Assembly: GCA_963698465.1 (NCBI GenBank)
Contig: CAVOQY010000013.1
Coordinates: 420,559-484,558 of the forward strand
DNA: 64,000 nucleotides
Reading direction: 5' to 3'
Source of the DNA: an uncultured delta proteobacterium
Lineage (GTDB): Bacteria; Desulfobacterota; Desulfobacteria; Desulfobacterales; UBA2156
This document shows, piece after piece, positions 17,819-43,094 of the stretch. The position numbers and the translations under genes were made by a program. Below the pieces are notes generated by a model. The model saw only the letters and a list, made by a program, of their open reading frames with translations. It was not told the origin of the DNA and made no database searches. The number at the start of each line of letters is the position of its first letter. Within the stretch, counting starts at the first letter, position 1.

Positions 17819-19993
17819 ATGCCTAAAGAGCTTTTTTTTATGTCTGTTTCAGATCCCAAAGCCGAGGGAAAGACAGCGGTCACGACGACCTGCTCCTTCG
17901 ACTGCGGTGCGCGCTGTCTCCTGAAGGTCCGTGTTCAAAACGGAAAGGTTTCCCGCATCGCCGCGGATCCTCGGGGCGGTTTTCACCTCCGGCCGTGCCT
18001 GCGGGGATTGTCCCAAAAAGAGGTGGTGCACGCTCGCGATCGACTCACGCGCCCCCTCAAGCGGCTCGGCAAAAGGGGAAGCGGAGAGTTCATGCCCGTC
18101 TCCTGGGACGAGGCCCTGGACACGGTGGCTTCTCAGCTGAGAACGGTCCGGGATTCCTGGGGCCCGGAATCCATTTTCCTGATGGATTACTACGGTAACG
18201 AAGGCGCGCTGCATGACACCCGCAGGACCGCACACCGGTTTTTTCATCTGTTCGGCGGCTGCACCAGCGCCTGGGGCAGCACTTCCATGGAAGCAGCGGT
18301 TTTTGCCTCCGACGCCACCTTGGGGAGTCAGTACACCGCCAACAGCCGCGAAAACCTGCTGAAATCAAAGTTGATCATCCTCTGGGGTTGGGATCCGCTC
18401 ATATCCCGGTTCAGGCCGGACACGTGGCACTTTCTGAAAAAAGCCAAGGACCGCGGAATTCGCATCCTTTGCGTGGACCCCCGCCGCAATCGTACGGCAA
18501 AAGCCTTGTCCTGTCCCTGGATCCCGGTGAAGCCCGGAACCGACACCGCCCTGCTCCTCGCCATGGCCTATGTGATCCTCGTCGAGGACCTTTTCGACGC
18601 GCTTTTCGTGAATCGATACACCCACGGCTTCGACGCCTTCAAGGCCTATGTCCTGGGGGGCAGCAACCGAACCCCCAAGTCTCCTCGTTGGGCAGCTCCG
18701 ATAACGGGTGTCGAACCCGAGGTCATCCAAAGCCTTGCGCGGGCCTACGCCACCCATAAACCGGCAGCGCTTTGCACCGGATGGGCTCCGGGCCGGACGG
18801 CCTTCGGAGAACAGTTTCACCGGGCGGCCATGGTCCTGGCGGCCCTGACGGGAAACATCGGCGTCCCCGGGGGCCATGTGGCCGGGGGCACGGATCGGAT
18901 GCCTCTGGGGCTGTTGAGCCGGTCATTTCCGGTGCCTTCCGAACGCTTTCCCCGTGTGCACGTGAGCCGGGTTTACGATGCCATTTTGGAGGGGAAATCA
19001 GGAGGGTTTTCCAGCGACATCCATGTCCTTTATGTCGTCGGATGCAACCTCTTGAACCAGTTCCTCAACCTCAACAAAGGCGTCCGTGCACTGAATCAGG
19101 TCGGTTTTACCGTGGTGCACGATCTTTTCCTAACCCCCACGGCCCGGTATGCGGACATCGTCCTGCCTGTGACTCACTATCTGGAAAAAGAGGATATCGG
19201 CTCTCCATGGCTGGGTGGCCCGTACCTGATCCACATGCCCCCTGCAGTCGAACCGCCTTCCGGGGTCCGCTCCGACCTTGACATCTTTTCTTTGCTTGCC
19301 GAACGGCTCCAGGTACCGGGTTACAATCCGAAAACAGAAAGGCAGTGGCTTGAAGAATTCTTCGGGAAGACGGCGGGCCTGCCTGACTTCGAATCCTTCA
19401 GAAAAAAAGGATTCCACTTTTTTGATAAAACGACGCCCTGGGTTGCCTTCAGGAAGCAGATTGAAGACCCCAAAAGGCATCCCTTCTCCACCCCTTCTGG
19501 AAAGATCGAGCTCTTCAGTGAAAAGATCGCCGCCCTACAGGATCCGAGGCTTTCACCGATACCCACCCACACGGATTCCTGGGAAGGCCCGCAGGACCCC
19601 CTCTTCGATCGATACCCCCTCCAACTGATCAGCCCTCACGCCAGGACCCGCGTCAACTCCCAATTCGACAACATTCCTTTTCTCAAGGAAAAGGCGGACG
19701 ACCGCATCTGGCTGAATCCGGCCGACGCCCGCCTTCGGGGCATTTCCGATGGAGACCCAGTGGTGGTTTACAACGGACGCGGCCGCCTCCGCGTGCCCGC
19801 AAGAGTCACCCCGGACATCATGCCCGGCGTGGCGAGCCTGGATGCCGGCGCCTGGTATCGGCCCGACGCCTCCGGGACAGACACCGGGGGGTGCGTGAAC
19901 GTACTGACCCTCGACCGCGCTTCGCCGGGGGGCGCATTCCCTTGCAACAGCTGCCTGGTGGAAATCGCAAAGGACCCTTTGCCGACCTCCTGA
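17819..19993 (+). CDS. Molybdopterin (Mo/W-bisPGD) oxidoreductase, DMSO-reductase superfamily, cytoplasmic, substrate unknown
   Basis: 724 aa. N-terminal Fe-S motif CSFDCGARC...C, no Tat signal, and a typical family body and C-terminal beta-barrel region ([29 protein letters not shown]). Confidence 0.85.
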
Positions 19994-20157: not shown

Positions 20158-20445
20158 ATGAAGAACCGGCTAAAAAATTGGGTGGTGGGGATTTGCGCGC
20201 TCGGATGTCTGTTAAGCTGGATCGCTTGCGATTCGAAACCGGGAGGCCAGTCTCCGATGAAGTCCAAGACCCCGGACTTCGGAGCCATCTCCAGCGTTGA
20301 CGGAGGAGGCGAAGAGGAGCCGAAGAAAGCCGAGGCCCCTGCCCTGCAGCCGGCTGACGCTCCCGCCGCAGGAGGTTCAGTATCCAAGGGGGCTGCCGAT
20401 GTTTCGGCCTCTCAGGCAGGCGCCGCCGCGAGCCCTCAGAAATAA
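20158..20445 (+). CDS. Small low-complexity lipoprotein
   Basis: AAGGAG RBS, signal peptide with lipobox LSWIAC, and an Ala/Gly/Pro/Glu-rich mature part. Confidence 0.55.
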   Translation: MKNRLKNWVVGICALGCLLSWIACDSKPGGQSPMKSKTPDFGAISSVDGGGEEEPKKAEAPALQPADAPAAGGSVSKGAADVSASQAGAAASPQK

Positions 20446-20472: not shown

Positions 20473-21696
20473 CTACGACAGCTCCCGGGAAGCCTCGGCC
20501 ATCAATTTGGCGATGGCCATTTTTTGGGGGCAGCGCTTCTCGGCTTCCGAATAGTCGACGCGTTCCAGGCGCGCACGAACCGTTTCCGGGATTTGCCTGT
20601 AAAGGCGGGCGGCCGTTCCGGGATTCCGATAGCTTCGGCGGTACATCAGATATCTCATGATGTCGCCCACGGGAACCGCTTCCGAAAGCGCCGATTCGCA
20701 AAGAACGGTACACCCCGCGCAGTATTCGGATGCGGTTTCCCGTGCGTGTCGGTCCATGAGTCGCCGATCCGCCGAAGAGAGCCGTGTTTTTTTCACGGCT
20801 GCCTGGACGTTGGCCATCAGCAGCGTCAATGTCGGCATCTGGGAACAGATGCTGGCGATCCGGGGGTCTTCCCACACCGCCATGAGTTTGGCCTGGCCGT
20901 CGGTAAACCCCCTCTCCAGAAAGCGGCCGGCAAGGGCCATCTCCGTTTCCGTGTTGGTCTGCACCGCTCCACCCCCTTGGGTTTTCATGGCGGTGAGTCC
21001 GATCCCGGCCTGGGTGCAGGCCTCCACAGCCCGGCGCATGGCATCCGTTTTCATCAGCCGGTAGTTGTAAGTCATCATGATCCCGTCGATCCACCCCAAT
21101 TTCGGAGCCCCCGACAGGCACGCCTCCATGTTGCTGTGGGTGCTGAAACCGAACAGCCGGATTTTGCCTGAGGATTTGGCCTTTTCCGCCCATTCCCGAG
21201 TGTCTTTCATGGATTCAATATCCCGGATCGCGTGCACGAAGAACAGGTCGACATGATCGGTTTGCATCCGCTCCAGGGAAAGGTCGAGATGCCGGCTCAT
21301 CCCGTTTTGGGTCCAAGATCCTGATTTGGTGACCAGAAAGACCCGCTTTCGATCCTCGGGGTACCGGGAAAAGTATCTCCCGATCCCTTCCTCGCTGCGC
21401 CCCCCGCCGTAGGAATTGGCCGTGTCCCAGTAGGTCACACCCCATTTCAGAGCCTGCTTAAGCAGGAGCTGGTTGCTGGGGATGTCGAACATGCCCCCCA
21501 GGGAAAGTACGGAGACGGAAACTCCGGTTTTTCCAAAGGGTCGTTGGGAGATGGCCAGGGTTTCTTTTTCCTTCCCGGGTGTAGGATTTTCCGGGGTTGA
21601 AGCCTTGGTAAGGGAGGCGCCTGTGGCGGTACAGGCGATTATCCCTGCTGTTTTCAAAAAAGATCTTCTTGTGAGTTTCTTTGGACTTGATGCCAT
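20473..21696 (-). CDS. Tat-exported aldo/keto reductase with a C-terminal Cys-rich (Fe-S-like) extension
   Basis: Twin-arginine leader KLTRRSFLKTAG, AKR core (WDTANSYGGGRSEEGIG, DHVDLFFVHA), and a C-terminal CAGCTVLC...RCP motif. Confidence 0.85.
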   Translation of the reverse strand: MASSPKKLTRRSFLKTAGIIACTATGASLTKASTPENPTPGKEKETLAISQRPFGKTGVSVSVLSLGGMFDIPSNQLLLKQALKWGVTYWDTANSYGGGRSEEGIGRYFSRYPEDRKRVFLVTKSGSWTQNGMSRHLDLSLERMQTDHVDLFFVHAIRDIESMKDTREWAEKAKSSGKIRLFGFSTHSNMEACLSGAPKLGWIDGIMMTYNYRLMKTDAMRRAVEACTQAGIGLTAMKTQGGGAVQTNTETEMALAGRFLERGFTDGQAKLMAVWEDPRIASICSQMPTLTLLMANVQAAVKKTRLSSADRRLMDRHARETASEYCAGCTVLCESALSEAVPVGDIMRYLMYRRSYRNPGTAARLYRQIPETVRARLERVDYSEAEKRCPQKMAIAKLMAEASRELS

Positions 21697-21791
21697 TTCC
21701 TTCCCTTCCTCTTGTTTTTTTAGGGTGTGGGCAAAAGGTTTTTCGACCGCCGGCCATCAACAGCTTTTAGCCTGAAAAGCGACGGGCTCCA

Positions 21792-23759
21792 TCAAGGGGT
21801 TAAGGTTTTGAATCCAGACGGAGTCAGGGCGTGCTTCCTGTGACGGGTTTCATTTTCCGCCGTCACGCGGATGGCTCTCAGCCCGGACACCGGACATTCA
21901 TGCTCGCAGATTCCGCATCCGATGCATCGATCGATGTCCACCCATGGCTGCTGAAGTCGGATTTTGACGAAAAGCCGGCTCCCCGGCGCCGGGGGCACTG
22001 TCCAGGGAAATTCCGGATGAATCTCGATCCGATCGGCCCGGTTTTTAAGGATACGCCGGGGGACGGCATCCCCTGTCCTTTCGGCGATGGCGTAGTAATC
22101 GCCTGTTTCATACCGGCCGGGGATCAACGGAGCTGTATGGAGGACCGCATGAAGCCGGCCGGATTCCCGGACCACCGGAGGATCCAAAAACCGTGGATCC
22201 GCAAAATGCTCCCGGGTGAAGATGGCCTTGGGGCTGACGGGACAGTTTTCCTGGCAGACGATGCAGGGTCTGTCCATGGCCCACGGGAGACATCGACCCC
22301 TGTCGATAAAGGCGGTCCCGATACGCACGGGCCCGATGCCTTCAAAGGCTTTACGCCCGAGGCGCTCATCCAGGCTCAGGGAGCGGATGGCCGAGGTGGG
22401 GCACAGGTGCCCGCAGGCGATGCAGTTGTGCCGGCATCCGCTGCTTCCCATGCGGAAATCGAGAATGGGCGTCCACAATCCTTCCAGGCCCCCCTCCAGT
22501 CCCGCCGGCTGGATGACCTGGGTGGGACAGATACGCATGCACTGGCCGCACTTGATGCAACGGCTTAAGAATTCGCGCTCCGGCAGGGATCCCGGGGGTC
22601 GAACCCGTGACGGGTTCCAATTGGCGGCAAGCCCTCCGCCCGCGCGCACCAGAGGGACCGCCATCACGCCGGAAAGAAGCGACAGCACGAATCCCCTCCG
22701 GGACCAATCGGGCAGGTGGGTCTCCCCCCCTTCGGAGGGATTCGTTCGGTAGGCGATCTGCCGGGTTCGGCAGGCCTTGACGCAGTTGAGACAGAGTACG
22801 CACTCCCCCCAGACGATGCTGGATGAAGGGGCGCAGGCGCCCTCGCAATCGGTTTCGCAGTCCCTGCAGTCGGCACAGGGGTGTTCCGTCTTTCCCACGC
22901 GCCACAAGGAATGTCGCGCCAACAGGCCAAAAAGAGCCCCAAGCGGACAGACATACCGGCAATAGAACCTCGGGATCCAAAGGTTCAGAAAGACCGCGGC
23001 GAAAAAAATCGTTCCGATGAGCCAGGCGCCCTGGTAGGGATGCGAGGCGGCCGACAGCCTCAGGAGGCTCTGATCCAGGGCGGGCAGGAGGATCAAGTTC
23101 ACGGATCTTTGAAAAAGAGGGATGGGGTCCAGGAGGCCGGATTGCAGGGAACCCTGAAACACCTGGGTGTCCTTGAAGACGAGAATCAGCGCGGCCGCGG
23201 CCATGACAGGAAGGATCCAGGCGCTTTTTCTCCGGCGCTTCCGGTAAAGCGCGTGAAGGGTCGCCCCCAATAGGAGCAACAGGAGAGCGCCGGCGGCCGC
23301 CGCCCACGGCAGCCGGGGATCGTTTAAGGGAACATTGGCGAAAAATGCAGGCAACTCCGCCGCAGCCGCGCCGAGCATGAAAAAAAGGATCCAGTACTTG
23401 GCCGCCTGCCATCGGCTGTACCCGTTGACTTCACGCTTCCGGGATCCGGGCTTCCGTCGTCTTCCCAGATAGCCGACGAACTGGTGCAGGGTGCCGAACG
23501 GACAGGCCCATCCGCAAAAAAATCGTCCCAGAAGGATCGTCAGCACCACAGGAATCAGACCCAGGATCAATCCCTGATAAAGCGTCTGAGTGCTCAAAAG
23601 GGTCCCGATCCCCACCAGGGGGTCGAACTCGAGAAAGGCGTTGACCGGCCATCCCCTAAGCTGCCACCAGTTTTCTCCCAGGGAGGTCACAGCGCAGAAG
23701 CCCAAAAAAAGAACCAGGAAAAAAACCTGGCTGATCCGCCTGACGATGAGGATGCTCAT
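21792..23759 (-). CDS. Membrane-bound polyferredoxin, NapH/MauN/NosR-like N-terminal domain plus six 4Fe-4S-type motifs
   Basis: Two membrane-embedded CxxxCP motifs (FFCGWACPFG, FYCRYVCPLG) among TM helices. Six ferredoxin-type motifs follow: CADCRDCETDC, CVLCLNCVKAC, CIKCGQCMRICP, CRHNCIACGHLCP, CIVCQENCP, CIGCGICEHECP. Confidence 0.85.
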   Translation of the reverse strand: MSILIVRRISQVFFLVLFLGFCAVTSLGENWWQLRGWPVNAFLEFDPLVGIGTLLSTQTLYQGLILGLIPVVLTILLGRFFCGWACPFGTLHQFVGYLGRRRKPGSRKREVNGYSRWQAAKYWILFFMLGAAAAELPAFFANVPLNDPRLPWAAAAGALLLLLLGATLHALYRKRRRKSAWILPVMAAAALILVFKDTQVFQGSLQSGLLDPIPLFQRSVNLILLPALDQSLLRLSAASHPYQGAWLIGTIFFAAVFLNLWIPRFYCRYVCPLGALFGLLARHSLWRVGKTEHPCADCRDCETDCEGACAPSSSIVWGECVLCLNCVKACRTRQIAYRTNPSEGGETHLPDWSRRGFVLSLLSGVMAVPLVRAGGGLAANWNPSRVRPPGSLPEREFLSRCIKCGQCMRICPTQVIQPAGLEGGLEGLWTPILDFRMGSSGCRHNCIACGHLCPTSAIRSLSLDERLGRKAFEGIGPVRIGTAFIDRGRCLPWAMDRPCIVCQENCPVSPKAIFTREHFADPRFLDPPVVRESGRLHAVLHTAPLIPGRYETGDYYAIAERTGDAVPRRILKNRADRIEIHPEFPWTVPPAPGSRLFVKIRLQQPWVDIDRCIGCGICEHECPVSGLRAIRVTAENETRHRKHALTPSGFKTLTP

Positions 23760-24745
23760 AATCGCTTGAAATCCAGCTTCCGGTAATCGGCCCTTCCTGC
23801 GCCGGCCGCTTCGGCCTTTCCAATATAGGGAAGATCCTGCGCGGTCTTTCCCAAGAGCTCGGCGCCGCAGGCATCGGCCGCAACCGGGTCCGTGCTCACA
23901 ATGAGGGTGTGGGTGACTTTGAGGTCGGAAAGGGAGCCCCCGGTGGGTCCGTTGGAAACCATGGTGGTGGTGCCGTCCAGGATCACCAGGGTCGGCCGGA
24001 TCATCATGGCCAGTTCCGCGATGATGTCGTGGATCTCCTGATGGAAAAGGTTCCTCCGCCCCCCCAGCAGGCCGTACCAGTTCTTCAGGGTCATGGATGC
24101 GCCGCTTCGATGGTGGTCTTTCACAGGGGTGAGGCCGATCACTTTGTCGATCCCTCTCAACGGCTCCGAAAGCACCGGCCAGTTTCGGATGAGCCGGGCA
24201 CCGGGAACGCTCAAAGGTCTGAACAGGGCCTGCCGGGGGAGAACGACGCGGGCACCCGAGTCTTCGGCGGCCTTTCCGATGCCGGTGAGGGAGAAGCAGC
24301 TGACGGGATCGTTGATGGGATTGTCCGTCACGATGACTTCCCTGGCCCCTGCCTGGAAACTGAGCCGGGTCATGGCTTCCACCAGAAGCGGGTGCGTGGT
24401 TGCCGAAAGGATTGAAGGAGACGCAAAGGCGGCGTTGACTTTTAACAGCACCCTGTCGTTCTTCCGGATAAAGGTTTCAACCCCACCCATGGCCGCCAGG
24501 GCCAAGTCTAATGCCCGGACCCGATCCTTTTCCCGAACCAGTCGGATACGGCCCTCGGTCCCGGATACGGAAAAATCCGGAAACGGCGGGACTTCCGATG
24601 CCGGAAGAAGGGTTTGAGGGCCCTTGGGATCCTGAAATCCGTACCCCAGAGCGCAAGCGGCGGCGATGGAAACACCGGCTTTCAACGAACGGGCCACAAA
24701 ATCCCGTCTATTATATTTTTTTCCTTTTAAATCAATTGTTTTCAT
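23756..24745 (-). CDS. Tat-exported DUF362-family protein
   Basis: Twin-arginine leader YNRRDFVARSLKAG. DUF362-like core (RVLLKVNAAFASP...THPLLVEAM...GAREVIVTDNP). 4-nt overlap with the downstream polyferredoxin gene. Confidence 0.75.
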   Translation of the reverse strand: MKTIDLKGKKYNRRDFVARSLKAGVSIAAACALGYGFQDPKGPQTLLPASEVPPFPDFSVSGTEGRIRLVREKDRVRALDLALAAMGGVETFIRKNDRVLLKVNAAFASPSILSATTHPLLVEAMTRLSFQAGAREVIVTDNPINDPVSCFSLTGIGKAAEDSGARVVLPRQALFRPLSVPGARLIRNWPVLSEPLRGIDKVIGLTPVKDHHRSGASMTLKNWYGLLGGRRNLFHQEIHDIIAELAMMIRPTLVILDGTTTMVSNGPTGGSLSDLKVTHTLIVSTDPVAADACGAELLGKTAQDLPYIGKAEAAGAGRADYRKLDFKRL

Positions 24746-25763
24746 TCAATTTGATCAAGTAGTTATTTAGCCGATTGGCCAGGTCCAGGGCCCTTTTTTT
24801 ATCCGGGGCCTGATGAACGCCGGCCAAGAAAAATCCTTGAGAAAAAATCACCTCCGTTTCCCCCATGACGGAAAGCACCCATACATCATTTTCCGGGAAA
24901 GCATCTGTTTTCAGGAGTTGGGCATCAAAGCGCAGAAGAAACGCATGGTAGGTCTCGGCCAGGGCCTGCGCTTCCCGGGCATCAGCTCTCCTCGAAACAA
25001 ACGCCGTGAATCGGCTTCCGTCGACCTGATATTCGGCGGTGAACACCTTGTCCAGTTTCTCGAAGCCGAAGGCATCGGCTGCGATGAGAACGATGCTTCC
25101 AGGGTCAAGGCCTTCTTTGGGGAAAAGATGCGTTTCGGGGGCTGTTTTTTCCGCTTCCGGAAAAGCCGCCGTCAGGACCTTCCCCAGATCATAAAGCGCC
25201 GACTGCAAACCGGGGTTTTCAGAAGATGCGACAAGTTCCATGTAATATCGGCCCAGGGCGATGAAAAGCGCATTGGACGTTTGGTAGGCAGCCTTCCCCA
25301 GATCCACCGGCAGCGCACCGTCTCTTTTTTGCTGGCTGTAAACGGAAAAAGCCCCCTGGGGCTCGTCCATTTCATAGAGGAAAGCCTCCAACCAGTCGCC
25401 TGCATCCCCTCGATATCGAAACCGGCAAGTCTCCAGTCGGACAAATCCCGCACCCAGATAAAGCTCCGCCTTCCCGTCGATTTTATCCGAGAGCGTTGCT
25501 TCGCTGAAGACTTCCGCATCCGATAAAAATTCGAGATTCTCCGGAAGCGGAAGGCGGGAAAAGACGGAGCCGTCCCGGGTTTCAGACCGCGTTTCCGGAG
25601 CCGGGAATCCGCCGCTCTCCAGGGGGAGGGCCTGTTCCCTCAACAGGGGAAAAAAGCGATACTGCTCGAAAAAAACCCAAAGTGCGATGGCGGTCAAAAC
25701 GCTCAGCAGAAAGACCCCCAGCAGGGTTTCCTTGATTTCGGCGCTTCTCTTGACTGCCGGCAT
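24732..25763 (-). CDS. Hypothetical N-terminally anchored protein, family not recognised
   Basis: 343-aa ORF with a single N-terminal TM helix (LLGVFLLSVLTAIALWVFF). 14-nt overlap with the downstream DUF362 gene. Confidence 0.6.
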   Translation of the reverse strand: MPAVKRSAEIKETLLGVFLLSVLTAIALWVFFEQYRFFPLLREQALPLESGGFPAPETRSETRDGSVFSRLPLPENLEFLSDAEVFSEATLSDKIDGKAELYLGAGFVRLETCRFRYRGDAGDWLEAFLYEMDEPQGAFSVYSQQKRDGALPVDLGKAAYQTSNALFIALGRYYMELVASSENPGLQSALYDLGKVLTAAFPEAEKTAPETHLFPKEGLDPGSIVLIAADAFGFEKLDKVFTAEYQVDGSRFTAFVSRRADAREAQALAETYHAFLLRFDAQLLKTDAFPENDVWVLSVMGETEVIFSQGFFLAGVHQAPDKKRALDLANRLNNYLIKLNENN

Positions 25764-25876
25764 ATCGGATCTTTTTTCTCGAGGATTCCGGTGAAGTTCA
25801 GCACGACTGGATATCTAAGAACAATTCCTAATAACTATAAAGAAACGCCCGCTGGATGTCAAACTTCCAAGCGCCA

Positions 25877-27712: not shown

Positions 27713-28699
27713 ATGCCCTCGTTGACTGTACTCCTCGAAGCCCGACCGTTTTGTGTTTTTGACGACACCCCCATGAAGGAACTCAGTGCTGCAGGGCTCT
27801 CCCTGACCGATTGGAGAGGGTCCGGGATGGGCGACCCCGGTTTCCTGAAGGCCCTGGAAACCGCGGACATCATCTTGTGCGGAAACGACCTCAGGATCGA
27901 CGAAACCCTCCTGGAACGGTGCCCCAGGATGAAAGCGGCGGCCAAGCTGGGGGTGGGTCTTGACACCATCGACATCCAGGCCGCAACCCGCAGGAACGTC
28001 CTGGTTTTCAACACGCCGGGAACCAATACCCAGGCCGTGGCCGACCACACCTTTGCGCTCCTTTTGTCTGTCGCCAGGAAGATTCTCTACTGCGACAAAT
28101 CACTGAGGGAGAGGCGATGGGAGCACACCAAGATCATGGGATTTGAAATCTGGGGAAAGACCCTGGGGTTGATCGGGCTGGGCGCCATCGGCCAGGGGGT
28201 GGCCAAAAGGGCGAAAGGGTTCGATATGAAAGTGGTGGCCTATGACCCCTACTGGCCCGAATCTTTCGCCGGAGAGCAGGGCATCGAAAAAATGGAGGTG
28301 GAGGAACTTCTGAAGGTATCGGATATCGTGAGCATCCATTCCCCCCTCACCCCAGAAAACAAGGGTATGATCAATTCAAAGACCCTGGCCCTCATGAAGC
28401 CGGGCGCCTTTCTCATCAACACGGCTCGAGGGGAAATCGTCCGGGAACCGGACCTGTACCAGGCTCTCAAGAAGAAAACCCTGGCCGGGGCGGGCATCGA
28501 CGTCTTCGAGAACGAACCTCCCTCGGACTCGCCTCTTTTGACGCTGGAAAACGTGGTCCTGACCCCGCACACGGCCGCTTTTACCCAAGACGCCTTGAAG
28601 AACATGAGTCAAAGCATCGCCGAACAGGTCATCGCCTACGCCGGGGGGACCTTGCCCCGGCACGCAGTCAATGCCCAAGCCTGGAAGAAAAACCCGTGA
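27713..28699 (+). CDS. D-isomer-specific 2-hydroxyacid dehydrogenase (phosphoglycerate dehydrogenase-like)
   Basis: NAD-binding GLIGLGAIGQGVA, the catalytic-region motifs NTARG and TPHTAAFT, and an AAGGAG RBS. Confidence 0.85.
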   Translation: MPSLTVLLEARPFCVFDDTPMKELSAAGLSLTDWRGSGMGDPGFLKALETADIILCGNDLRIDETLLERCPRMKAAAKLGVGLDTIDIQAATRRNVLVFNTPGTNTQAVADHTFALLLSVARKILYCDKSLRERRWEHTKIMGFEIWGKTLGLIGLGAIGQGVAKRAKGFDMKVVAYDPYWPESFAGEQGIEKMEVEELLKVSDIVSIHSPLTPENKGMINSKTLALMKPGAFLINTARGEIVREPDLYQALKKKTLAGAGIDVFENEPPSDSPLLTLENVVLTPHTAAFTQDALKNMSQSIAEQVIAYAGGTLPRHAVNAQAWKKNP

Positions 28700-30477
28700 G
28701 CGCCCTAACCCGCGATGAGGCCGTCCGACGGTTTTATCTAAAGCATCTGCCAGGATGTCGCATTGAAGAACGCCGCCTGGAAGCCCCCTGCCCTTTTTGT
28801 GCCTCGGTTAAATCCGGGGCCTCCGGTCTCCTGACGGTGGACCTGGATCCGGGCAGCGGGTTTTTCGGATATTTTCGATGTACCCAACGCTGTTCTCCAG
28901 GGGGATTTCCGGCTTTTTTCGCTAAAAGAAGCGGCATCGACCCCGCAAGCGTTCCGGGATTCGATCCGGACCGAGAGCCTTTTGTCCGCGATACGGTTCT
29001 CCCCACTAAAAACCTCAATCTCGAAGTCACCCGCTTCCAGGCGCTTCTGGGCGAAAGCCAGGATGCTTTTTTCGGTCGTCTCAACATCTCCCACGCCGTC
29101 GTCCGGGAGATGGGGATCGGGTACAACGGAAGATATCTGGTGTTTCCCTACCTCCTGGAAGATGGAAATTGCTATGCCGCCCACTGCATCTTGCCGGAAC
29201 GGGAAGAGGACAGTTTCTGGCAGGGTGACTCGACGTACACAACGGGCGATTTCAGAATCTACAATGTCCAGGAAATCGAAAGATGCGAAGGCGGGGCCCT
29301 CTGCATCACGGAGGGGGAAATCAACCTGCTGGCGCTCAAGCAGCTCGGCTACCCAGGGATCGCCGTCCCCCATGTCGACGATTTAAAAATCCTGACTCCG
29401 GAAAGGCTGGGGAAGGTCAAACGCATCTATTTGATCGTCAACCACTCTCCTGAGGCCGATGTGGCCGCCCGATCCCTGGCCGTCCGCCTCGGGCATAAAT
29501 CCCGAATTCTCAAATGGCCTTTTCATCTGAGGCGGGGATACCACCTGAGGGATCTGGCACAGGACACAGGGGATGCGTTCGAGACGGCCTTTTCCCGCAT
29601 GCTTTTTGCTTCCAAAGCTTTCTCCCCGTTTTCACCCCCGGAAAGGGAACACCGCCTGCTCTTGCAGAGCCTGGAGCGCGAAAAAGGGAAAACACTTCTC
29701 GGGATGCCCACCGGGTTTAAAAAATTGGACCTGGCCCTAAACGGCCTTCGTGGCCTCAACATCCTGGGAGGACCGCCCAAGGCAGGGAAGTCCTGTTTCT
29801 TCATGCAGGTCTCCACCGAGATGGCCAAGAACCGCATTCCCGTGATCTATTACGATTTCGAAAACGGCCGCCAGAAGATCTACGAAAGGACGCTGTGCCG
29901 CTTCAGCCGGCTCTCTGAAAAAAAGATCCGTATCGGCGGCCTGGACCCAACCCTCAGGGATCGCCTCGACGCCGCCACCTATGCGATCCGGGAGATCCTC
30001 CCCTTTTTTCGGGTGGTGACAGACCGCCAACTCAGCCCGGAGATCATGAAAAGAAAGATCGATTTCCTGCAGCATGAAACCGGCACCGATTTCACCCTGG
30101 TGGTCATCGACAGCCTCCACAAGCTCCCCTTCAAGAACCTCTCCGAACGCAGGACCGGCATCGACGAATGGCTTCGGAACATGGAATCCATCCGGGACGA
30201 ACAGAACGTGACCTTCCTGGTGACCTCGGAATTGTCGAGAGGCGCGGGAGGGCGTTACGACCGCACGCCGGACATGGCCTCTTTCAAAGAGTCCGGGGAT
30301 ATCGAGTACAGTGCAGACAACGCCATGATTCTGATGCCGGATTGGGACCCCCTGGATCCCATTTCCGAAAAGCAGCGAAAAAACGTCTTGTTCTTGGTGG
30401 CAAGCAGGGAAAACAGCCCGGGGAAAGTGGCGGAATACGCCCTGGAATATCCCTTCTGGGCTTTCCGGGAGCTTTAA
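28696..30477 (+). CDS. Bifunctional primase-helicase-like protein (Cys4 zinc ribbon + TOPRIM-like domain + DnaB/RecA-fold NTPase), T7 gp4/Twinkle-like architecture
   Basis: GTG start overlapping the dehydrogenase stop (GTGA). N-terminal CPFC...CTQRC. TOPRIM glutamate context LCITEGEINLLAL. C-terminal Walker A GGPPKAGKSCF, Walker B LVVIDSLHKL, and a DnaB H3-like FLVTSELSRG. Confidence 0.7.
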   Translation: MSALTRDEAVRRFYLKHLPGCRIEERRLEAPCPFCASVKSGASGLLTVDLDPGSGFFGYFRCTQRCSPGGFPAFFAKRSGIDPASVPGFDPDREPFVRDTVLPTKNLNLEVTRFQALLGESQDAFFGRLNISHAVVREMGIGYNGRYLVFPYLLEDGNCYAAHCILPEREEDSFWQGDSTYTTGDFRIYNVQEIERCEGGALCITEGEINLLALKQLGYPGIAVPHVDDLKILTPERLGKVKRIYLIVNHSPEADVAARSLAVRLGHKSRILKWPFHLRRGYHLRDLAQDTGDAFETAFSRMLFASKAFSPFSPPEREHRLLLQSLEREKGKTLLGMPTGFKKLDLALNGLRGLNILGGPPKAGKSCFFMQVSTEMAKNRIPVIYYDFENGRQKIYERTLCRFSRLSEKKIRIGGLDPTLRDRLDAATYAIREILPFFRVVTDRQLSPEIMKRKIDFLQHETGTDFTLVVIDSLHKLPFKNLSERRTGIDEWLRNMESIRDEQNVTFLVTSELSRGAGGRYDRTPDMASFKESGDIEYSADNAMILMPDWDPLDPISEKQRKNVLFLVASRENSPGKVAEYALEYPFWAFREL

Positions 30478-34902: not shown

Positions 34903-36180
34903 TCACGCGGCTTGATTTTGTAAGGGCAGACTCACCCCCCCGTGCGTCAGGACGCCGACGCAGGCCTTTTGCCTTTTTCCCCTCAGCGCGACGGCCAGGG
35001 CTTCTTCAATCGACGCATAATAGGCAAATCCCATCCGGCCGGCATCTTTTGCACTGAGGCCGAATGAAACCAGGCCGATCTTGATACGCTTTTTCATTCG
35101 AGCCAGGGGAACCGCCAGTGCGCACGCCACCGGATCTTCCGCCTTCCCGGATTCCAGCAGGGAAAGAAGACGGTTTGGATCTTCACCGAGATAATCTGCG
35201 AAGCGCGGATGCGTTCGATTCCCCTCCCTGCAATGCGTCAACAGGATCAGCGTCCCCCCGTCGCGCGTCATCAATTCGCCGCTTGCGATGGCCTTGGTGC
35301 TTTGCCAAAAATCGATTTGCGCAGGAAACGCGTTGGAGATGACCACCGGATAGCGCGTCGCAAACGGACATCCATAGACTTCGACGGCGAACTTGACGCC
35401 GGCCCGGTGGGCTTTGATGAAGTCTCCGGCAACGCATCGATACAAGGATCCGTCGCCGTTCAGGACGGCATTCAAGATAAAATCGAGTCCGATTCGCTCG
35501 CCTACGAAGGCTTCCAGGTCCATCCGCAAAGGCGCATGGACCACCCCGAGCTGGTTTCCGGGTATGGCCGCCTGTCGGGAATGGAAAGCATCAACCGTAC
35601 GACGGCTGCAGACTCCCGGCAAAAGGTTTTTGGCACCGCCGCTGAAGCCGGTATCCATATGGGGCGTAATCATGCCGACGCCGATGCGAACGTCGGCATC
35701 CGCAACCGCACGGTTGACATAACCCGGAATCCCTTTTGAGGAGGTGCCCATGTAGACCATTTCCGGATCATGGCTGGAGGGAATGTTCGTCACCTGGAAT
35801 GCATCCCTAATGGAGGACCCGATCTTGGTCAGGATCTCGGATTCCGTCATGGGCCGATGGGTCCCAAGGGCAAAGACGATGCGGATATCTTCTTGAAATA
35901 CCCCTGCCTTGAATAATTCGGCGATAAGAGGCGGCAGCATCAACTGCGTGGGTGTGCCCCGGGAAATGTCATCGATGACCAGCGCAACTTTTTGTCCAGG
36001 GCTGACGATTTGGGACAAAGGGGGGGAATCAATAGGGTGGGCCAACGCCGATTGAATGACGGCCTCGGCATCGCCTCCTCCTTCAAACGTCCGGGGGCAG
36101 ATCACCTCCCCCAATTTTTTGGGTGAAATCTCCAACAGGAGAGAGTCGTCGCCATAAGGGAATTCGACGGTTGCCATCAC
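34903..36180 (-). CDS. LarA-family nickel-pincer-dependent 2-hydroxyacid racemase/epimerase homolog (DUF2088)
   Basis: 425 aa with the LarA-like layout (VALVIDDISRGTP, ALGTHRPMTESE, GMITPHMDTGFSGGAK). Confidence 0.8.
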   Translation of the reverse strand: MMATVEFPYGDDSLLLEISPKKLGEVICPRTFEGGGDAEAVIQSALAHPIDSPPLSQIVSPGQKVALVIDDISRGTPTQLMLPPLIAELFKAGVFQEDIRIVFALGTHRPMTESEILTKIGSSIRDAFQVTNIPSSHDPEMVYMGTSSKGIPGYVNRAVADADVRIGVGMITPHMDTGFSGGAKNLLPGVCSRRTVDAFHSRQAAIPGNQLGVVHAPLRMDLEAFVGERIGLDFILNAVLNGDGSLYRCVAGDFIKAHRAGVKFAVEVYGCPFATRYPVVISNAFPAQIDFWQSTKAIASGELMTRDGGTLILLTHCREGNRTHPRFADYLGEDPNRLLSLLESGKAEDPVACALAVPLARMKKRIKIGLVSFGLSAKDAGRMGFAYYASIEEALAVALRGKRQKACVGVLTHGGVSLPLQNQAA

Positions 36181-36292: not shown

Positions 36293-36967
36293 TCATGCCC
36301 GTGTCGCCTCGAATCCCGGAAGGCTCAACCGCTTTTCAGCAAAGTTGAGAATCCAGGTTGCTATGGATACCAGCATCAGGTAAATAGCCCCGGCGATGAA
36401 GAACATTTCGGTGTACTTAAAATACAAGGAAGCCAGGATCTTGGCCTCCCCCGTGAGTTCGATGCAGGTCACCATATAAGCCAATGAGGAATATTTGATC
36501 AGGTAGATAATTTCATTGCCGCTTCCGGGAAGCGCTCTGCGGACGGCTTGGGGCAGAAGGATCGAGAAGAGCGCCTGCATCTTGCTGAAACCCAGGGATT
36601 GAGCCCCAAGCATTTGGCCTTTTTTAATCGAAAGAAGAGCCCCGCGCACGTACTCCGAATGATAGGCGCCGCTGCACAGGGAAAACCCGATCACTGCGGC
36701 CGCGTAGGGCGTGAGATAGATGCCGAAGCGCGCCAGTCCGAAATACCAGAGATAAAGCTGGATCAGCAGCGGAAATCCTCGAAAAAACAGGACATAGGTA
36801 TCTGCCAGGCGTTTCAGCATTGGGTGGCCGTAGAGTCGGAGCACCCCCGAGAGCACGCCGAGGATCAGGCCGAAAACCGCCGAAGGCACGATCAATTGAA
36901 TACTGATCCAAAGCCCCCTCAGCATCGCTGGAGCCACTTCCTGGCGTATAAACACGAATTCGTCCAT
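36293..36967 (-). CDS. Polar amino acid ABC transporter permease
   Basis: HisM/Q-type permease. ORF opens at 37087, but the ATG at 36967 lies 16 nt after the upstream ATPase stop. Confidence 0.85.
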   Translation of the reverse strand: MDEFVFIRQEVAPAMLRGLWISIQLIVPSAVFGLILGVLSGVLRLYGHPMLKRLADTYVLFFRGFPLLIQLYLWYFGLARFGIYLTPYAAAVIGFSLCSGAYHSEYVRGALLSIKKGQMLGAQSLGFSKMQALFSILLPQAVRRALPGSGNEIIYLIKYSSLAYMVTCIELTGEAKILASLYFKYTEMFFIAGAIYLMLVSIATWILNFAEKRLSLPGFEATRA

Positions 36968-36983
36968 AACCGATTCGGCTTCC

Positions 36984-37736
36984 TTATCCGTTTTTCTTGA
37001 TCTTCGAGCAGAATTCACGGGTTCGGCTGCACTCGGCATCCGATAAAATCTTTTCCGGCGGCCCCTGCTCCAAAATAAGGCCTTCATTCATGAAGAAAAT
37101 TTCATGGGCCAAGTAACGGGCGAATCCAAGCTCGTGGGTAACCAGCATCATGGTCATCCCTCCTGCGGCAAGGTCCTGAATCACCGCATGCACTTCACCG
37201 ATCAGTTCGGGATCCAGGGCAGAAGTCGGCTCGTCCAGCAGCATCACTTTGGGATCCATCGCCAGTGCCCGGGCGATGGAAACCCTTTGTTTTTGGCCTC
37301 CGGAAAGCTCTGCCGGATATTTCATCAGGTGTTCTTCGAGCCCGACGCGCTTCAATTCAGCGGTCGCTCTTTGTCTGGCTTCCTTTTGGCTCAGCCCCTT
37401 GACTCGAACGAGGCCGATTTGAACATTCTGGAGCGCATTGAGGTGGTCGAACAGATTAAACTCCTGAAAGATCATTCCCACCTTCTGCCGGTAGGCATAA
37501 AGCGCACGTTTGTTGGAAGGATCGACTTCTATTTCATTTAACCAGATGCGTCCCTCGTCAAATTTGACTAAAAAATTCATGCAATGCAAAAGGGTGCTTT
37601 TCCCGCTTCCGGAGGGCCCGATCATCACCTTGATGTCGCCCTCGCGGAGTTTAAAAGAAATTCCCCTCAAGATCTCATGGTTGCCATATCGCTTTTTGAT
37701 GCCCTGTCCTCTCAGGACGATTTTCTTCTCAGCCAT
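36984..37736 (-). CDS. Polar amino acid ABC transporter ATP-binding protein
   Basis: Walker A GPSGSGKST, LSGGQKQRVSIARAL, LLDEPTSALD. ORF opens at 37859; the ATG at 37736 (MAEKKIVLRG) is the likely start. Confidence 0.9.
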   Translation of the reverse strand: MAEKKIVLRGQGIKKRYGNHEILRGISFKLREGDIKVMIGPSGSGKSTLLHCMNFLVKFDEGRIWLNEIEVDPSNKRALYAYRQKVGMIFQEFNLFDHLNALQNVQIGLVRVKGLSQKEARQRATAELKRVGLEEHLMKYPAELSGGQKQRVSIARALAMDPKVMLLDEPTSALDPELIGEVHAVIQDLAAGGMTMMLVTHELGFARYLAHEIFFMNEGLILEQGPPEKILSDAECSRTREFCSKIKKNG

Positions 37737-37750
37737 GAAAAGCATCTTTC

Positions 37751-38425
37751 CTAATGTGCATAACCCTTGATGGCCGTTTTGCATTGGATGAAATGAAACA
37801 GTCGGGTCCCCAGGTAGGTCAAAGCCAGGAAAACAAATCCGGCAAACAAATAAAGCCAAAAATGCTGATAGGTTCTGGAAGCCACATGATTGGCTCTGGC
37901 CATGATTTCAGCGACACCGAGGGCATAGGTCACCGCAGAATCTTTCATGATGATGGTATATTCGTTGGTCCAGCCGGGGATGGCCAGTCGAAGTGCCTGC
38001 GGCATAATCACAAAAACGATTGCCTTGGTATCGCTCATTCCGATGGCGCGTGCCGCCTTCAGCTGGCCGTCAGGCAAGGAAAGAATCGCCCCTCTCAAGA
38101 TCTGCGACTGGTATGCGGAGCTGATGAGCCCCAAAACGATGATGGAGACGGTGAAAGCGGAAAGATCCACATCGAGTGCCGTCAACAGCCCGAAATAAAA
38201 CAGGAAAAGCAAAACCAAAAGGGGAACGCCTCGAAAGAACCAGACGTAGAGGCCCACCAGCCGCCGCAAAAGACGGTTGCCGTAGACTTGCGCCACCGAT
38301 AAGAAAAGCCCCAGTATCAAGCCCATCGTCAGGGCTCCGGCGACCACGGTCAGGGTCACCCAGACGCCTTTAAGAATATAGGGAAACCCCTCTGCAATCG
38401 CATTTAATCCCGGCGACACGCCCAT
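37751..38425 (-). CDS. Polar amino acid ABC transporter permease
   Basis: 224-aa HisM/Q-type permease. Confidence 0.85.
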   Translation of the reverse strand: MGVSPGLNAIAEGFPYILKGVWVTLTVVAGALTMGLILGLFLSVAQVYGNRLLRRLVGLYVWFFRGVPLLVLLFLFYFGLLTALDVDLSAFTVSIIVLGLISSAYQSQILRGAILSLPDGQLKAARAIGMSDTKAIVFVIMPQALRLAIPGWTNEYTIIMKDSAVTYALGVAEIMARANHVASRTYQHFWLYLFAGFVFLALTYLGTRLFHFIQCKTAIKGYAH

Positions 38426-38625
38426 GACGGTATCCTCCGGCTCTTGTCGGCATCAAGGCTTTCAAACGACGATGTCAGACGGTTAAACTTTACTCGGAAA
38501 CAAGGACCGGCAATCCCCGGAAGCGGATGTTGAGGGTTTCCGGTGTGCCGGTAAGGAACACGGTCTGCAAAGAGGTAGAAAATCAGACAAGGGGCTGCGC
38601 GAAGTAAAATCGGATAAGGTCGGAA

Positions 38626-38642
38626 CTCCCGCGAAGCGGGAG
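38626..38642 (-). terminator. Intra-operon GC-rich stem-loop after the binding-protein gene
   Basis: CTCCCGC-GAA-GCGGGAG, 22 nt downstream of the SBP stop on the minus strand, inside a 238-nt gap before the permease gene. Confidence 0.4.
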
Positions 38643-38663
38643 CCCCGACCCTGACCTGCCCTC

Positions 38664-39425
38664 TTATTTCATTTTCCACTTTTTCACGAGTTCATTCCAA
38701 TAGGGAGAGGCCTTGAGGCGTTTCAGGCCTTCGTTTAACAGGTCGTGCAGCTTGGCATCCTCTTTCCGAACGGCGTAGCCGTATTCGACATCGGGCTGCC
38801 CGTAGCTGCCGATGGATTTGACCGCCAAACCCTTGGTTTGCGCTTCTTTCAACGCGGTGTTTGAAACCGTCGCCGCATCTACGCGGCCATTGCCCACCTC
38901 TTCAATGGCCAGTTCCGTGGTATCGTAATTCAACAATTCAAATTTATAGCCTTTTTTAAGCAAGTTATCCGTAATCCACTTGGATTCGGCGCTTCCGCGC
39001 AGCAGGCCGATTTTTCGGCCCGGCTTCAGAGCTTCCTCGACGGTCAAATTGGAATCCTTTCGAACGACCAGCAACTGCTTGACCACCCAATACGGTTCGC
39101 AGAAATCTACCGCCGCTTTTCGTTCGGGGGTAATACTCATTCCCGAGGCGATCAAATCAATTTTTTTAGATTGAAGCGAGGGGACAATGGCTGCCCATTC
39201 GGTGGGCTGATGCTTGACCTTGAAACCCATCTCCTTTGCAATCCAATCGATGGCGTCCACATCGAAGCCCGCCGGTTTCCCGTTTTTATCGATAAAGGTA
39301 AAGGGCGGATAGGCGGCATCGAATCCGTTGATGTAGGCCTCTTCCGCCGCCATTGCTGAAGTCAATCCAAAGCCAATCACCAACGATGCAACCAGCGCCA
39401 TCACCCAGTTCCGGTTTTTCATCAC
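38664..39425 (-). CDS. Polar amino acid ABC transporter substrate-binding protein (family 3)
   Basis: Signal peptide, SBP_bac_3-like body (GFDVDAIDWIAKEMGFK, IDLIASGMSITPERK), and an AAGGAGA RBS. Confidence 0.9.
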   Translation of the reverse strand: MMKNRNWVMALVASLVIGFGLTSAMAAEEAYINGFDAAYPPFTFIDKNGKPAGFDVDAIDWIAKEMGFKVKHQPTEWAAIVPSLQSKKIDLIASGMSITPERKAAVDFCEPYWVVKQLLVVRKDSNLTVEEALKPGRKIGLLRGSAESKWITDNLLKKGYKFELLNYDTTELAIEEVGNGRVDAATVSNTALKEAQTKGLAVKSIGSYGQPDVEYGYAVRKEDAKLHDLLNEGLKRLKASPYWNELVKKWKMK

Positions 39426-39572: not shown

Positions 39573-39738
39573 GTGACACAAGTTGCGGAAGCTGTCAATG
39601 GCAATTGGCCGCCGGCTGAAAAACGTGCCTTGGCGCCTGCCCTGTTAGATGCTATGATAAATATCTCTGCCCTGCAATGCTCCGGGGCCGACGCCGGCTT
39701 TGGACTTCAAAGGGATCTACGGCAAGGAGGAATCCCCC

Positions 39739-41445: not shown

Positions 41446-41468
41446 CCCTTGAAATGAAGGAGAACCGG

Positions 41469-42386: not shown

Positions 42387-42463
42387 CCCTGCACGCTTCT
42401 TACGGCGAACCTTTCCAGGCCGCGGCAGGCGACGCCGGGAAAAAAGGAAAGCGTAGATCACCC

Positions 42464-43093
42464 ATGAAAACCAGAGAAACCGCCATCGGCGAATTCCTCG
42501 AAAGGCTCGCCGGAGGCTCGGCAACACCTGGGGGCGGCAGCGTCGCCGCCCTGGCAGGGGCATTGGGCGCAGCCCTTTGTGCCATGGTCGGACGGCTGAC
42601 CGTAGACCGCCCCAAGTTCCAGGAGGTCGCCTCCGAAATGCGCCAGATGCTTGAGGCCGCCGACCGCCTGTCTTTGGATCTGCTGGATCTCGCGGATAAG
42701 GACATCGAAGCCTACACCCGCGTCATGACGGCTTATAAAATGCCCAGAGAAACCCAGGATCAAAAGACGCTCCGCCAGGAAGCGATCCAGAACGCCTTCA
42801 AGCAGGCATCTGCGATTCCGATTCAAATCTTGCAGACGATGGAAGCGGTGGTCGGCCTCGTGGAAAAAGCGATGTCCGAGGGCAACCCCAATTGCATCAC
42901 CGATGCCGCTGTCGCCGCCGAGCTGGTCCGGGCCGCCTCCAAGGGGGCCGCCTACAACGTAAAGATCAACCTGACCGCGGTGAAAGACCCGGATTTCGTC
43001 CAGCAGGCCCGCTCCGAACTCTCGCAACGGCTTCCGAAAATACTGTCGGTTTGCGATAAACTCCAGCAGACCATCGACGCGCGCCTCGGGTGA
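42464..43093 (+). CDS. Formimidoyltetrahydrofolate cyclodeaminase (FtcD C-terminal-type, stand-alone)
   Basis: ATPGGGSVAALAGALGAALCAMV motif, 209 aa. Confidence 0.85.
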   Translation: MKTRETAIGEFLERLAGGSATPGGGSVAALAGALGAALCAMVGRLTVDRPKFQEVASEMRQMLEAADRLSLDLLDLADKDIEAYTRVMTAYKMPRETQDQKTLRQEAIQNAFKQASAIPIQILQTMEAVVGLVEKAMSEGNPNCITDAAVAAELVRAASKGAAYNVKINLTAVKDPDFVQQARSELSQRLPKILSVCDKLQQTIDARLG

Positions 43094-43094
43094 C

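Follow-up and report, generated by a model that had tools for sequence, protein, structure and literature searches.

A cluster of four genes from an uncultured delta proteobacterium of the Desulfobacterales probably encodes a single membrane-bound redox complex that faces the periplasm. The cluster occupies positions 20473-25763 of a 64,000-nucleotide (nt) stretch of contig CAVOQY010000013.1; this whole stretch is called the window here, and coordinates refer to it. The genes encode a DUF6599 protein (gene 1), a DUF362 protein with a leader for the twin-arginine translocation (Tat) system (gene 2), a polyferredoxin in which NapH- and NapG-like parts are fused (gene 3; PFD), and a Tat-exported aldo/keto reductase with an iron-sulfur (Fe-S) type tail (gene 4; AKR). 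The cluster is read as a variant of the NapGH-type electron-transfer module with uncharacterized catalytic partners. Comparison with other genomes shows that the core of the module is Tat-DUF362 together with PFD, and that DUF6599 and a second exported enzyme are optional additions.

Gene order and the polyferredoxin

The initial annotation described four co-oriented genes on the minus strand, the first three overlapping by 14 nt and 4 nt and the fourth following after 95 nt; the junctions, read directly, are exactly these. The ATG of gene 2 begins at 24745 and the TGA of gene 1 lies at 24734-24732, while genes 2 and 3 share the sequence ATGA. Such overlaps suggest that genes 1-3 are translationally coupled. 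Gene 4 has a strong ribosome-binding site, AGGAAGGGAAGGA, ahead of its ATG. For gene 2, the automatic gene call (P0121, 309 amino acids (aa)) omits the first 20 codons of the open reading frame (ORF) used here and with them the conserved twin-arginine motif; the alignments of orthologues favor the longer ORF, so that P0121 is probably 20 codons too short. The best-scoring promoter-like site of the region, of the sigma-70 type, sits in the 113-nt gap between the upstream major facilitator superfamily gene and gene 1. A sigma-54 promoter was also considered and rejected: matches to TGGCAC-N5-TTGC occur at chance level, and none is near the operon. No riboswitch or other Rfam RNA element was found near the operon. 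A small ORF (20158-20445, +) could be terminated by a hairpin with a T-run (20497-20518, +) that overlaps gene 4 at its 3' end. The closest relatives of the cluster are in Desulfobacterales metagenome-assembled genomes (MAGs), where gene 1 is 58-60% identical.

The polyferredoxin is encoded by gene 3. Pfam finds in it two Fer4_5 (NapH-type) units and several ferredoxin dicluster matches. Its two CX3CP motifs are CGWACP (aa 82-87) and CRYVCP (aa 267-272), and its six ferredoxin-type Cys motifs are divided into two at aa 295-330 and four at aa 401-622. The latter four [4Fe-4S] motifs (Cys 401-411, 442-453, 490-506, and 612-622) comprise 16 Cys in all, with an insertion of about 100 aa between the third and the fourth. 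The initial annotation had recognized the NapH-type domain, both CX3CP motifs, and the six ferredoxin motifs; it overlooked a third twin-arginine motif of the cluster, which is internal to gene 3 (SRRGF, aa 353-357, with RR at aa 354-355). This motif is followed by a weakly hydrophobic helix (aa 357-371, mean Kyte-Doolittle hydropathy 1.3) and then by Arg, and it is kept in 51 of the 54 orthologues of gene 3.

This arrangement is that of the PFD family, in which NapH and NapG are fused. According to the available text of Tooke et al. (2017, eLife, PMC5449189), Sec inserts the NapH helices of a PFD, and insertion of the last helix and export of the NapG-like domain depend on Tat. The same source reports that Tat dependence was shown for the PFD of the delta proteobacterium MLMS-1 (Q1NSB0) with MBP and AmiA fusions and with RR-to-KK variants, and that the family is predicted to hold clusters on both faces of the membrane. 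The membrane part of the MLMS-1 protein, taken from supplementary file 6 of that paper, was compared with gene 3: BLASTP gave 31% identity (E 1e-26), colinear over aa 36-372 and 40-358, respectively. In the alignment, SRRGFVLSLLSGVMAVPLVR of gene 3 pairs with GRRRLLGAAAAGLVVGPLLR of Q1NSB0, RRGFVLSLLSGVMAVPLVR being opposite RRRLLGAAAAGLVVGPLLR. By its sequence, gene 3 belongs with the PFDs: it has the two CX3CP motifs, the RR motif before a weakly hydrophobic last helix, the four C-terminal [4Fe-4S] motifs, and homology to the MLMS-1 protein.

Hydropathy predicts 6 + 1 helices for gene 3; the about six Sec helices exceed those of NapH by two, the extra ones being at aa ~150-198. Both CX3CP motifs lie on the same side of the membrane as the basic loops RRRKPGSRKRE and YRKRRRKS. 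Since the extra helices are an even-numbered insertion, the topology should be kept, and since the homologue has been studied experimentally, it may be carried over to gene 3: both CX3CP motifs and two [4Fe-4S] motifs would be cytoplasmic and the other four [4Fe-4S] motifs periplasmic. The NapG-like domain would thus be located where the Tat-exported proteins (genes 2 and 4) and the ectodomain of the gene 1 protein also are, which makes the compartments compatible.

Gene 3 is nevertheless not an orthologue of NapGH, as judged by family models and gene context. The NapH models NF007013 and TIGR02163 match its N-terminal half, and the NapG/MauM models NF007012 and TIGR00397 its C-terminal half, all below their cut-offs (72.6 bits versus 234 for NF007013; 70.3 versus 269 for NF007012), and the two parts are fused. 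No nap gene (NapA, NapB, NapC), nos gene, or cytochrome gene occurs in the neighborhood in the window, nor are nap or nos genes among the conserved neighbors at the sampled loci. The novelty proposed in the initial annotation is reduced in part, since the biogenesis of PFDs, the family of gene 3, was demonstrated experimentally in 2017 and gene 1 falls in a named Pfam family. That 2017 study covers biogenesis only; its available text mentions neither a partner nor a function of PFD, and the term DUF362 is absent from it (PMC5449189).

The predicted exported partners

Gene 2 encodes a member of Pfam DUF362 (PF04015; E 6e-39, 134.6 bits versus a cut-off of 24) with the full-length domain at aa 99-295. 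Its leader, NRRDFVARSL, carries RR at aa 13-14, and R13, R14, and F16 are invariant in alignments that include homologues at 31-35% identity; more distant DUF362 partners of PFD also have RR leaders (MDRRNFLL, MKRREFLK, VNRRIFLK). Gene 4 has the leader LTRRSFLKTAG (RR at aa 10-11), which scores 20.1 against a cut-off of 16.7 with TIGR01409 and is kept in 59 of 61 orthologues. Because these motifs are conserved among homologues, they are not chance occurrences, and the two export signals of the initial annotation stand. Tat export of DUF362 suggests folding or cofactor loading in the cytoplasm. Further invariant residues of DUF362 include K102, N104, D141, D146, K209, H211, K221, N222, H235, Q236, and N265-GP-x-GG. 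No Cys cluster (Fe-S) motif is present in its sequence or alignments, and its fold appears LarA-like (below). Consequently, of the earlier idea of a membrane polyferredoxin linked to exported Fe-S partners, the polyferredoxin serving exported partners is well supported, and DUF362 as an Fe-S partner is not. DUF362 is proposed here as the main periplasmic catalytic partner.

The AlphaFold2 (AF2) model of gene 2 (mean pLDDT confidence 81.6) points to a LarA-like fold: in a Foldseek search of the PDB, the 14 best matches were all of the LarA family (E 3e-5 to 3e-3), and these structures are either racemases or an uncharacterized structural-genomics homologue. The LarA superfamily comprises racemases and epimerases of lactate and 2-hydroxyacids, which use a nickel-pincer nucleotide cofactor. 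In LarA, H174 is the catalytic His, K184 the Lys that tethers the cofactor, and H200 a nickel ligand. DUF362 and the N-terminal domain of LarA have been placed in a common Pfam clan, CL0471 (PMC11770544), and the invariant H211-x9-K221 of gene 2 mirrors the spacing of H174 and K184. The differences are that the template-modeling (TM) scores are just 0.35-0.44, that gene 2 has no Lar_N Pfam match, and that LarA enzymes are cytoplasmic and longer by about 100 aa than DUF362, which is exported. PDB sequence searches with DUF362, as single sequences or profiles, gave no match, and a search with a LarA hidden Markov model (HMM) found no DUF362. A single-sequence hhalign comparison, which is not significant (probability 0.13%), pairs H211, K221, and H235 with H174, K184, and H200, and places F107 and D141 opposite R75 and H108. 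In a profile-profile comparison (E 0.054, again not significant), only the pairing of H211 with H174 is retained, and those of the Lys and the second His are not. Gene 2 is not classed here as a LarA. The mapping of residues is without statistical support, and R75 and H108 are not conserved.

One could still imagine that DUF362 is an exported relative of LarA with a cofactor like the nickel-pincer nucleotide, or another pyridinium/metal cofactor assembled in the cytoplasm, wired via the periplasmic Fe-S chain of PFD to the quinone pool; hydride chemistry would then be converted to single-electron transfer. Three leads point this way, namely, the fold match to LarA only, the likeness of H211-x9-K221...H235 to H174-x9-K184...H200, and Tat export, which fits a cofactor built in the cytoplasm. 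We consider this proposal a long shot, and a pincer-type cofactor in DUF362 is a lead, not a result. If true, it would define a new class of periplasmic dehydrogenases/reductases that is widespread among anaerobes, and the Fe-S AKR would be a second catalytic head. The window contains a true cytoplasmic LarA-family gene (Table 1), whose alignment keeps R74, H108, H174, K184, and H200; since the genome encodes a true LarA, the organism probably makes the nickel-pincer nucleotide cofactor. No larB, larC, larE, or other lar gene for cofactor biosynthesis lies within the 64-kb window. The LarA gene adjoins genes for an ABC transporter of the amino-acid type (36293-39425).

Gene 4 is an AKR by its predicted fold and active site. 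It matches PF00248 (E 2e-30, 106.3 bits versus a cut-off of 24) over aa 77-252, and the Asp-Tyr-Lys-His tetrad (DTANSY, VTK, FVH) is kept in its orthologues and in a homologue at 28% identity. The extra Cys tail noted in the initial annotation, C326xxC329xxxC333...C389P (nt 20527-20721), is kept in 60 of 61 orthologues. These Cys correspond to the three Cys of motif 1 and the last Cys of motif 2 in distant homologues with two motifs; this correspondence, together with the logic of the ferredoxin fold, suggests that gene 4 carries the ligand set for one predicted [4Fe-4S] cluster. The Pfam match covers model positions 23-204 of 291 and leaves the last third of the barrel unmatched. In canonical AKRs such as AKR1B1, an Asn and a Gln hold the nicotinamide. 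In gene 4, compared with the solved AKRs 7utf and 8hwn, the canonical SN and Q positions read ST and M, and its signature motifs at the usual nicotinamide-binding positions are STHSN and AMKTQGGG. The literature searched contains nothing on an exported Fe-S AKR, and no Fe-S AKR of the type of gene 4 has been characterized in it. There is a precedent for the export of a nicotinamide enzyme in the Tat-exported glucose-fructose oxidoreductase, which holds NADP.

The product of gene 1, which according to the initial annotation matched nothing, belongs to Pfam DUF6599 (PF20244; E 9e-49, 166 bits versus a gathering cut-off of 27). Hydropathy and the positive-inside rule give an N-terminal signal-anchor helix at aa 14-32, so that its main domain is predicted to lie in the periplasm. 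The protein contains one Cys and no redox motif. Its AF2 model (pLDDT 86.9) shows an ectodomain of two tandem alpha/beta modules, for which no significant fold match was found in the PDB (best E 2.5e-3, TM below 0.3); PDB sequence searches with DUF6599, as single sequences or profiles, were likewise without a match. Distant homologues have a cleavable Sec signal peptide in place of the anchor, and those in three of the distant loci described below (L114, L117, and L138) pass the Pfam gathering score. Two observations may be recorded as hints only, a weak likeness in fold to anchored periplasmic ligand-binding domains (the PknH sensor, TP0453, TiME) and a VtrC-like Pfam match below its cut-off.

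Conservation of the module and its interpretation

The joint occurrence of these families elsewhere was left by the initial annotation as a point to be checked, and it proves to be strongly conserved. A search with a DUF6599 alignment gave 389 loci among species-representative genomes, of which 80, all from Desulfobacterota, were examined; proteins of the window were searched by tblastn, and the denominators below are the loci with enough sequence. DUF362 is directly downstream of DUF6599 at 72 of 73 loci, PFD is next after DUF362 at 62 of 64, and a Tat-AKR lies further downstream at 37 of 48; all of these genes are on the same strand. Some loci have two AKR copies, and some have one upstream as well. 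Loci without the AKR include that of strain NaphS2 and those of several Syntrophobacteraceae. In one of the latter (L071, 14267-15493), a ferredoxin-domain gene and then a CCG-domain gene follow PFD, a pair like heterodisulfide reductase D. In the two closest relatives (L002, 14200-16297; L003, 5019-7077), two genes like NAD-dependent sugar-nucleotide epimerases/dehydratases, as judged by N-terminal sequence, stand between PFD and the AKR, an insertion that shows the AKR to be separable from genes 1-3. All-against-all clustering of the ORFs of the 80 loci revealed no further conserved neighbor. At two loci (L081, 15811-18735; L083, 15994-19090), genes for a PAS histidine kinase and a sigma-54-dependent response regulator come directly after the Tat-AKR; these genes are not conserved across the 80 loci. 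Compared with the proteins of the window, DUF362 has a median identity of 62%, the AKR of 60%, PFD of 54%, and DUF6599 of 40%. The highest value, that of DUF362, fits a constrained catalytic core, and the lowest, that of DUF6599, an adaptor.

A second, distant sample was obtained by searching with the MLMS-1 sequence for PFDs of 509-576 aa. In all three long contigs examined (Desulfurivibrio alkaliphilus, a Nitrospiraceae MAG, and GCA_040960625.1), a Tat-DUF362 gene is directly upstream of PFD, with no DUF6599 and no AKR within the operon. PFD gave more than 592 metagenome matches; 80 further PFD loci were scanned, and among the 57 with at least 1 kb upstream, 54 have an RR-bearing DUF362 gene directly upstream of PFD, while in two of the three exceptions it lies within 1.6 kb. 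At these metagenome loci, DUF362 is the only conserved neighbor, and the AKR is missing from most distant PFD loci. Where all four families recur at a distance, their order is different: it is Tat-AKR, DUF6599, Tat-DUF362, PFD at L138, L148, and L150 (DUF6599 at 22% and AKR at 28% identity), and L117 has two gene pairs of the four families in divergent orientation. At L114 and L130, a second Tat-DUF362 paralogue is found where the AKR stands elsewhere; these tandem Tat-DUF362 genes (L114, 3146-4039; L130, 4193-5080) follow the DUF6599 gene, one being very divergent (Pfam E 7e-7). An apparent fusion of DUF362 and PFD at L088 was set aside as an artefact, an ambiguous base hiding the junction. 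The recurrence of the four families in rearranged orders and in distant lineages is strong evidence of a functional link. The chain, which the initial annotation had end in a carbonyl reductase, does not center on that enzyme: the AKR is missing at 11 of the 48 loci and at most distant ones, and Tat-DUF362 is near-universal.

From the gene order, the motifs, their conservation, and the homologies just described, we infer the topology (by way of the experimentally studied homologue), a physical complex, a link to quinol, a direction of electron flow, and the cofactor and substrate of the enzymes, the cofactor being that of DUF362. In the mechanism we propose, Sec would insert the NapH-like helices of gene 3, its two CX3CP motifs and two [4Fe-4S] clusters staying in the cytoplasm; Tat would then recognize the internal SRRGF, insert the last helix, and carry the folded four-cluster NapG-like domain to the periplasm. 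By analogy with NapGH and NosGH, PFD would let electrons move between the menaquinone pool and those periplasmic enzymes that dock on its NapG-like domain; a donor in the cytoplasm that uses the clusters on that side is less likely. DUF362, its cofactor loaded in the cytoplasm, would be the obligatory partner and main catalytic subunit. The Fe-S AKR would be, in this lineage, a second catalytic head acting on a periplasmic carbonyl or alcohol. DUF6599, a membrane-anchored non-redox protein, would probably bind or present the substrate or scaffold the soluble subunits.

Several points weigh against the complex as proposed. The scores of gene 3 with the NapH and NapG models are far below the cut-offs, which makes quinol dehydrogenase activity an analogy and not a matter of membership. 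Its helix count comes from hydropathy only and is 6 + 1, versus the 4 + 1 reported for MLMS-1. The passage of electrons across the membrane in proteins of the NapH type lacks an established mechanism. The absence of the AKR downstream at 11 of 48 loci, together with the 95-nt gap in the window, suggests that it may act semi-independently, and the Thr and Met at its nicotinamide positions, with the unmatched last third of the barrel, make its cofactor uncertain. Finally, the literature searched contains no functional study of DUF362 or COG2006, in agreement with the initial annotation, and no mention of DUF6599.

An alternative to a respiratory enzyme is a system for maintenance or activation: PFD would supply only a low flux of electrons that keeps a periplasmic metalloprotein (DUF362 and, here, the AKR) reduced and active, or that repairs or detoxifies components of the envelope, reactive carbonyls for example. 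The NapH family does include accessory reductases such as NosR, which is thought to keep the copper centers of N2O reductase active, and CcoG, which reduces copper for oxidase assembly, and NosR is among the weak NCBIfam matches of gene 3. Moreover, the DUF362-PFD pair is surrounded by housekeeping genes, and no gene for a substrate transporter, regulator, or cytochrome is conserved beside it; genes for M48 envelope peptidases are found nearby in two distant loci. However, this proximity is limited to those two loci, and no client besides DUF362 is conserved beside PFD, so that DUF362 would have to serve as client and as end point at once. We regard such a maintenance role as rather unlikely. 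It is distinctly improbable, in our view, that the cluster contains two units, with DUF6599, DUF362, and PFD forming one system and the Tat-AKR working independently with a tightly bound NAD(P), like glucose-fructose oxidoreductase, and a structural Fe-S cluster. The gap and separate ribosome-binding site of gene 4, its absence at 11 of 48 loci, the unrelated sugar-nucleotide genes in L002 and L003, and the variable number and position of AKR copies would all be accounted for. Yet in distant lineages an AKR with Tat leader and Fe-S tail is again found next to DUF6599-DUF362-PFD, in another order and even divergently; the simplest reading of a conserved cluster on an exported enzyme near a periplasmic polyferredoxin is an entry point for electrons; and the canonical Asn and Gln that bind nicotinamide are apparently replaced.

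The alternative to which we give the least credence, as very improbable, dispenses with quinones and has ferredoxin or NAD(P)H feed electrons through the cytoplasmic clusters of PFD to the periplasmic reductases. It would give a role to the two conserved cytoplasmic clusters and the CX3CP motifs, which have no obvious one in a quinol-only mechanism, and it agrees with the clusters predicted on both membrane faces in the family (PMC5449189, available text). Against it, no gene for a cytoplasmic partner is conserved nearby, no known cofactor within the membrane span would bridge the distance, and the discussion in that paper assigns the characterized NapGH relatives to quinol oxidation. A quinone-linked, periplasm-facing complex with DUF362 as its principal enzyme remains the reading we prefer.

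The module is widespread, tightly conserved, and experimentally approachable now. The PFD family is large, as the 389 DUF6599 matches and the PFD matches in metagenomes indicate, and the insertion of PFD is a textbook case of cooperation between Sec and Tat. Tat-DUF362 is a near-obligatory neighbor of PFD across phyla, and some lineages add DUF6599 together with either an exported Fe-S AKR or a second DUF362. A testable hypothesis is thereby available for three families that have no known function, as well as for the role of NapH/NapG-type polyferredoxins outside nitrate and N2O respiration. An exported AKR with its own Fe-S cluster, for which no precedent was found in the literature searched, would put AKR chemistry in a compartment without an NAD(P)H pool. 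If the module is a respiratory or detoxifying enzyme, it would extend the periplasmic redox chemistry of sulfate reducers, syntrophs, Nitrospirota, and other anaerobes by a new reaction.

Neighboring genes and known systems

Table 1. Coordinates of the gene cluster, the parts of gene 3, a promoter-like site, and the LarA gene in the window
Feature	Position	Strand	Size or extent	Basis
Gene 1, DUF6599 protein	24732-25763	-	343 aa	ORF, Pfam PF20244
Gene 2, Tat-exported DUF362 protein	23756-24745	-	329 aa	ORF, Pfam PF04015
Gene 3, NapH-NapG fusion polyferredoxin (PFD)	21792-23759	-	655 aa	
Gene 3, NapH-like part	22740-23759	-	aa 1-340	Fer4_5 x2, Cys map, hydropathy
Gene 3, internal RR motif and predicted last helix, SRRGFVLSLLSGVMAVPLVR	22644-22703	-	aa 353-372	Hydropathy, alignment
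Gene 3, NapG-like part	21792-22643	-	aa 373-655	Cys map, NapG/MauM matches
Gene 4, Tat-exported aldo/keto reductase (AKR)	20473-21696	-	407 aa	PF00248, TIGR01409
Sigma-70-type promoter-like site	25834-25862	-	TTGACA-17 nt-TATAGT	11/12 consensus matches, consensus match only
True cytoplasmic LarA-family protein	34903-36180	-		Lar_N (E 5.5e-57), LarA_C

A molybdoenzyme gene of the DMSO/selenate-reductase family (17819-19993, +; TIGR02166, E 1e-169) converges on gene 4. Its product has no Tat leader and is presumably cytoplasmic; a link to the cluster was considered and rejected, since, besides the missing leader, the gene recurs clearly in L003 only, with a weak partial match in L023. Between this gene and gene 4 lies the small ORF mentioned above (20158-20445, +), which encodes 95 aa with an N-terminus like a signal peptide ending in ...LSWIAC and a tail rich in Ala, Gly, and Pro, without a Pfam match. 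A second molybdopterin oxidoreductase is encoded at 47622-50081 (+). A D-2-hydroxyacid dehydrogenase gene (27713-28699) overlaps at its end with the start of a gene for a 593-aa protein (28696-30477, +). This protein is rich in Cys in its N-terminal region and has a C-terminal domain like that of the DnaB helicase, a primase-helicase-like architecture, and it may be a mobile-element remnant. A set of genes resembling those for histidine utilization extends over 39700-44324 (+), with urocanase at 39700-41445, glutamate formiminotransferase at 41454-42386, and an amidohydrolase at 43095-44324; it is followed by a gene for a Fic/DOC protein with DUF4172 (45111-46256, -).

Among known systems, the COG1453-type AKRs, that is, aldo/keto reductases with a C-terminal ferredoxin-like domain, share with gene 4 a TIM-barrel core with Asp-Tyr-Lys-His and a Cys-rich C-terminal tail. 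Gene 4 differs from them in its Tat leader, and from its distant relatives in having, in this lineage, four Cys (one predicted cluster) in place of two motifs. One of the loci examined (L086) also encodes a cytoplasmic AKR+Fer4 protein.

The PFD of MLMS-1 resembles gene 3 in the NapH-NapG fusion, the CX3CP motifs, the Fe-S motifs on both sides of the membrane, the RR directly before a weakly hydrophobic last helix with a basic residue after it, and the C-terminal NapG-like domain with four [4Fe-4S] motifs; its close homologues (63% identity in D. alkaliphilus) have Tat-DUF362 directly upstream, as here. It differs in that gene 3 is longer by about 100-140 aa (655 aa versus 509-576 aa), with two extra predicted helices and an insertion in the NapG domain larger by about 70 aa, and has two cytoplasmic cluster motifs, compared with the three predicted in the available text of the MLMS-1 paper (PMC5449189).

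The NapGH and NosGH quinol dehydrogenase modules of E. coli and Wolinella succinogenes serve the reduction of nitrate and nitrous oxide in the periplasm. Like gene 3, they combine a NapH in the membrane, which has CX3CP motifs and clusters on the cytoplasmic side, with a four-cluster NapG exported by Tat. Their role would in principle be the same, to move electrons between the quinone pool and periplasmic enzymes. Gene 3 differs from them in uniting both parts in one polypeptide and in its low scores with the NapH and NapG models, and it would work with DUF362, an Fe-S AKR, and DUF6599, where those systems work with a molybdo- or copper enzyme.

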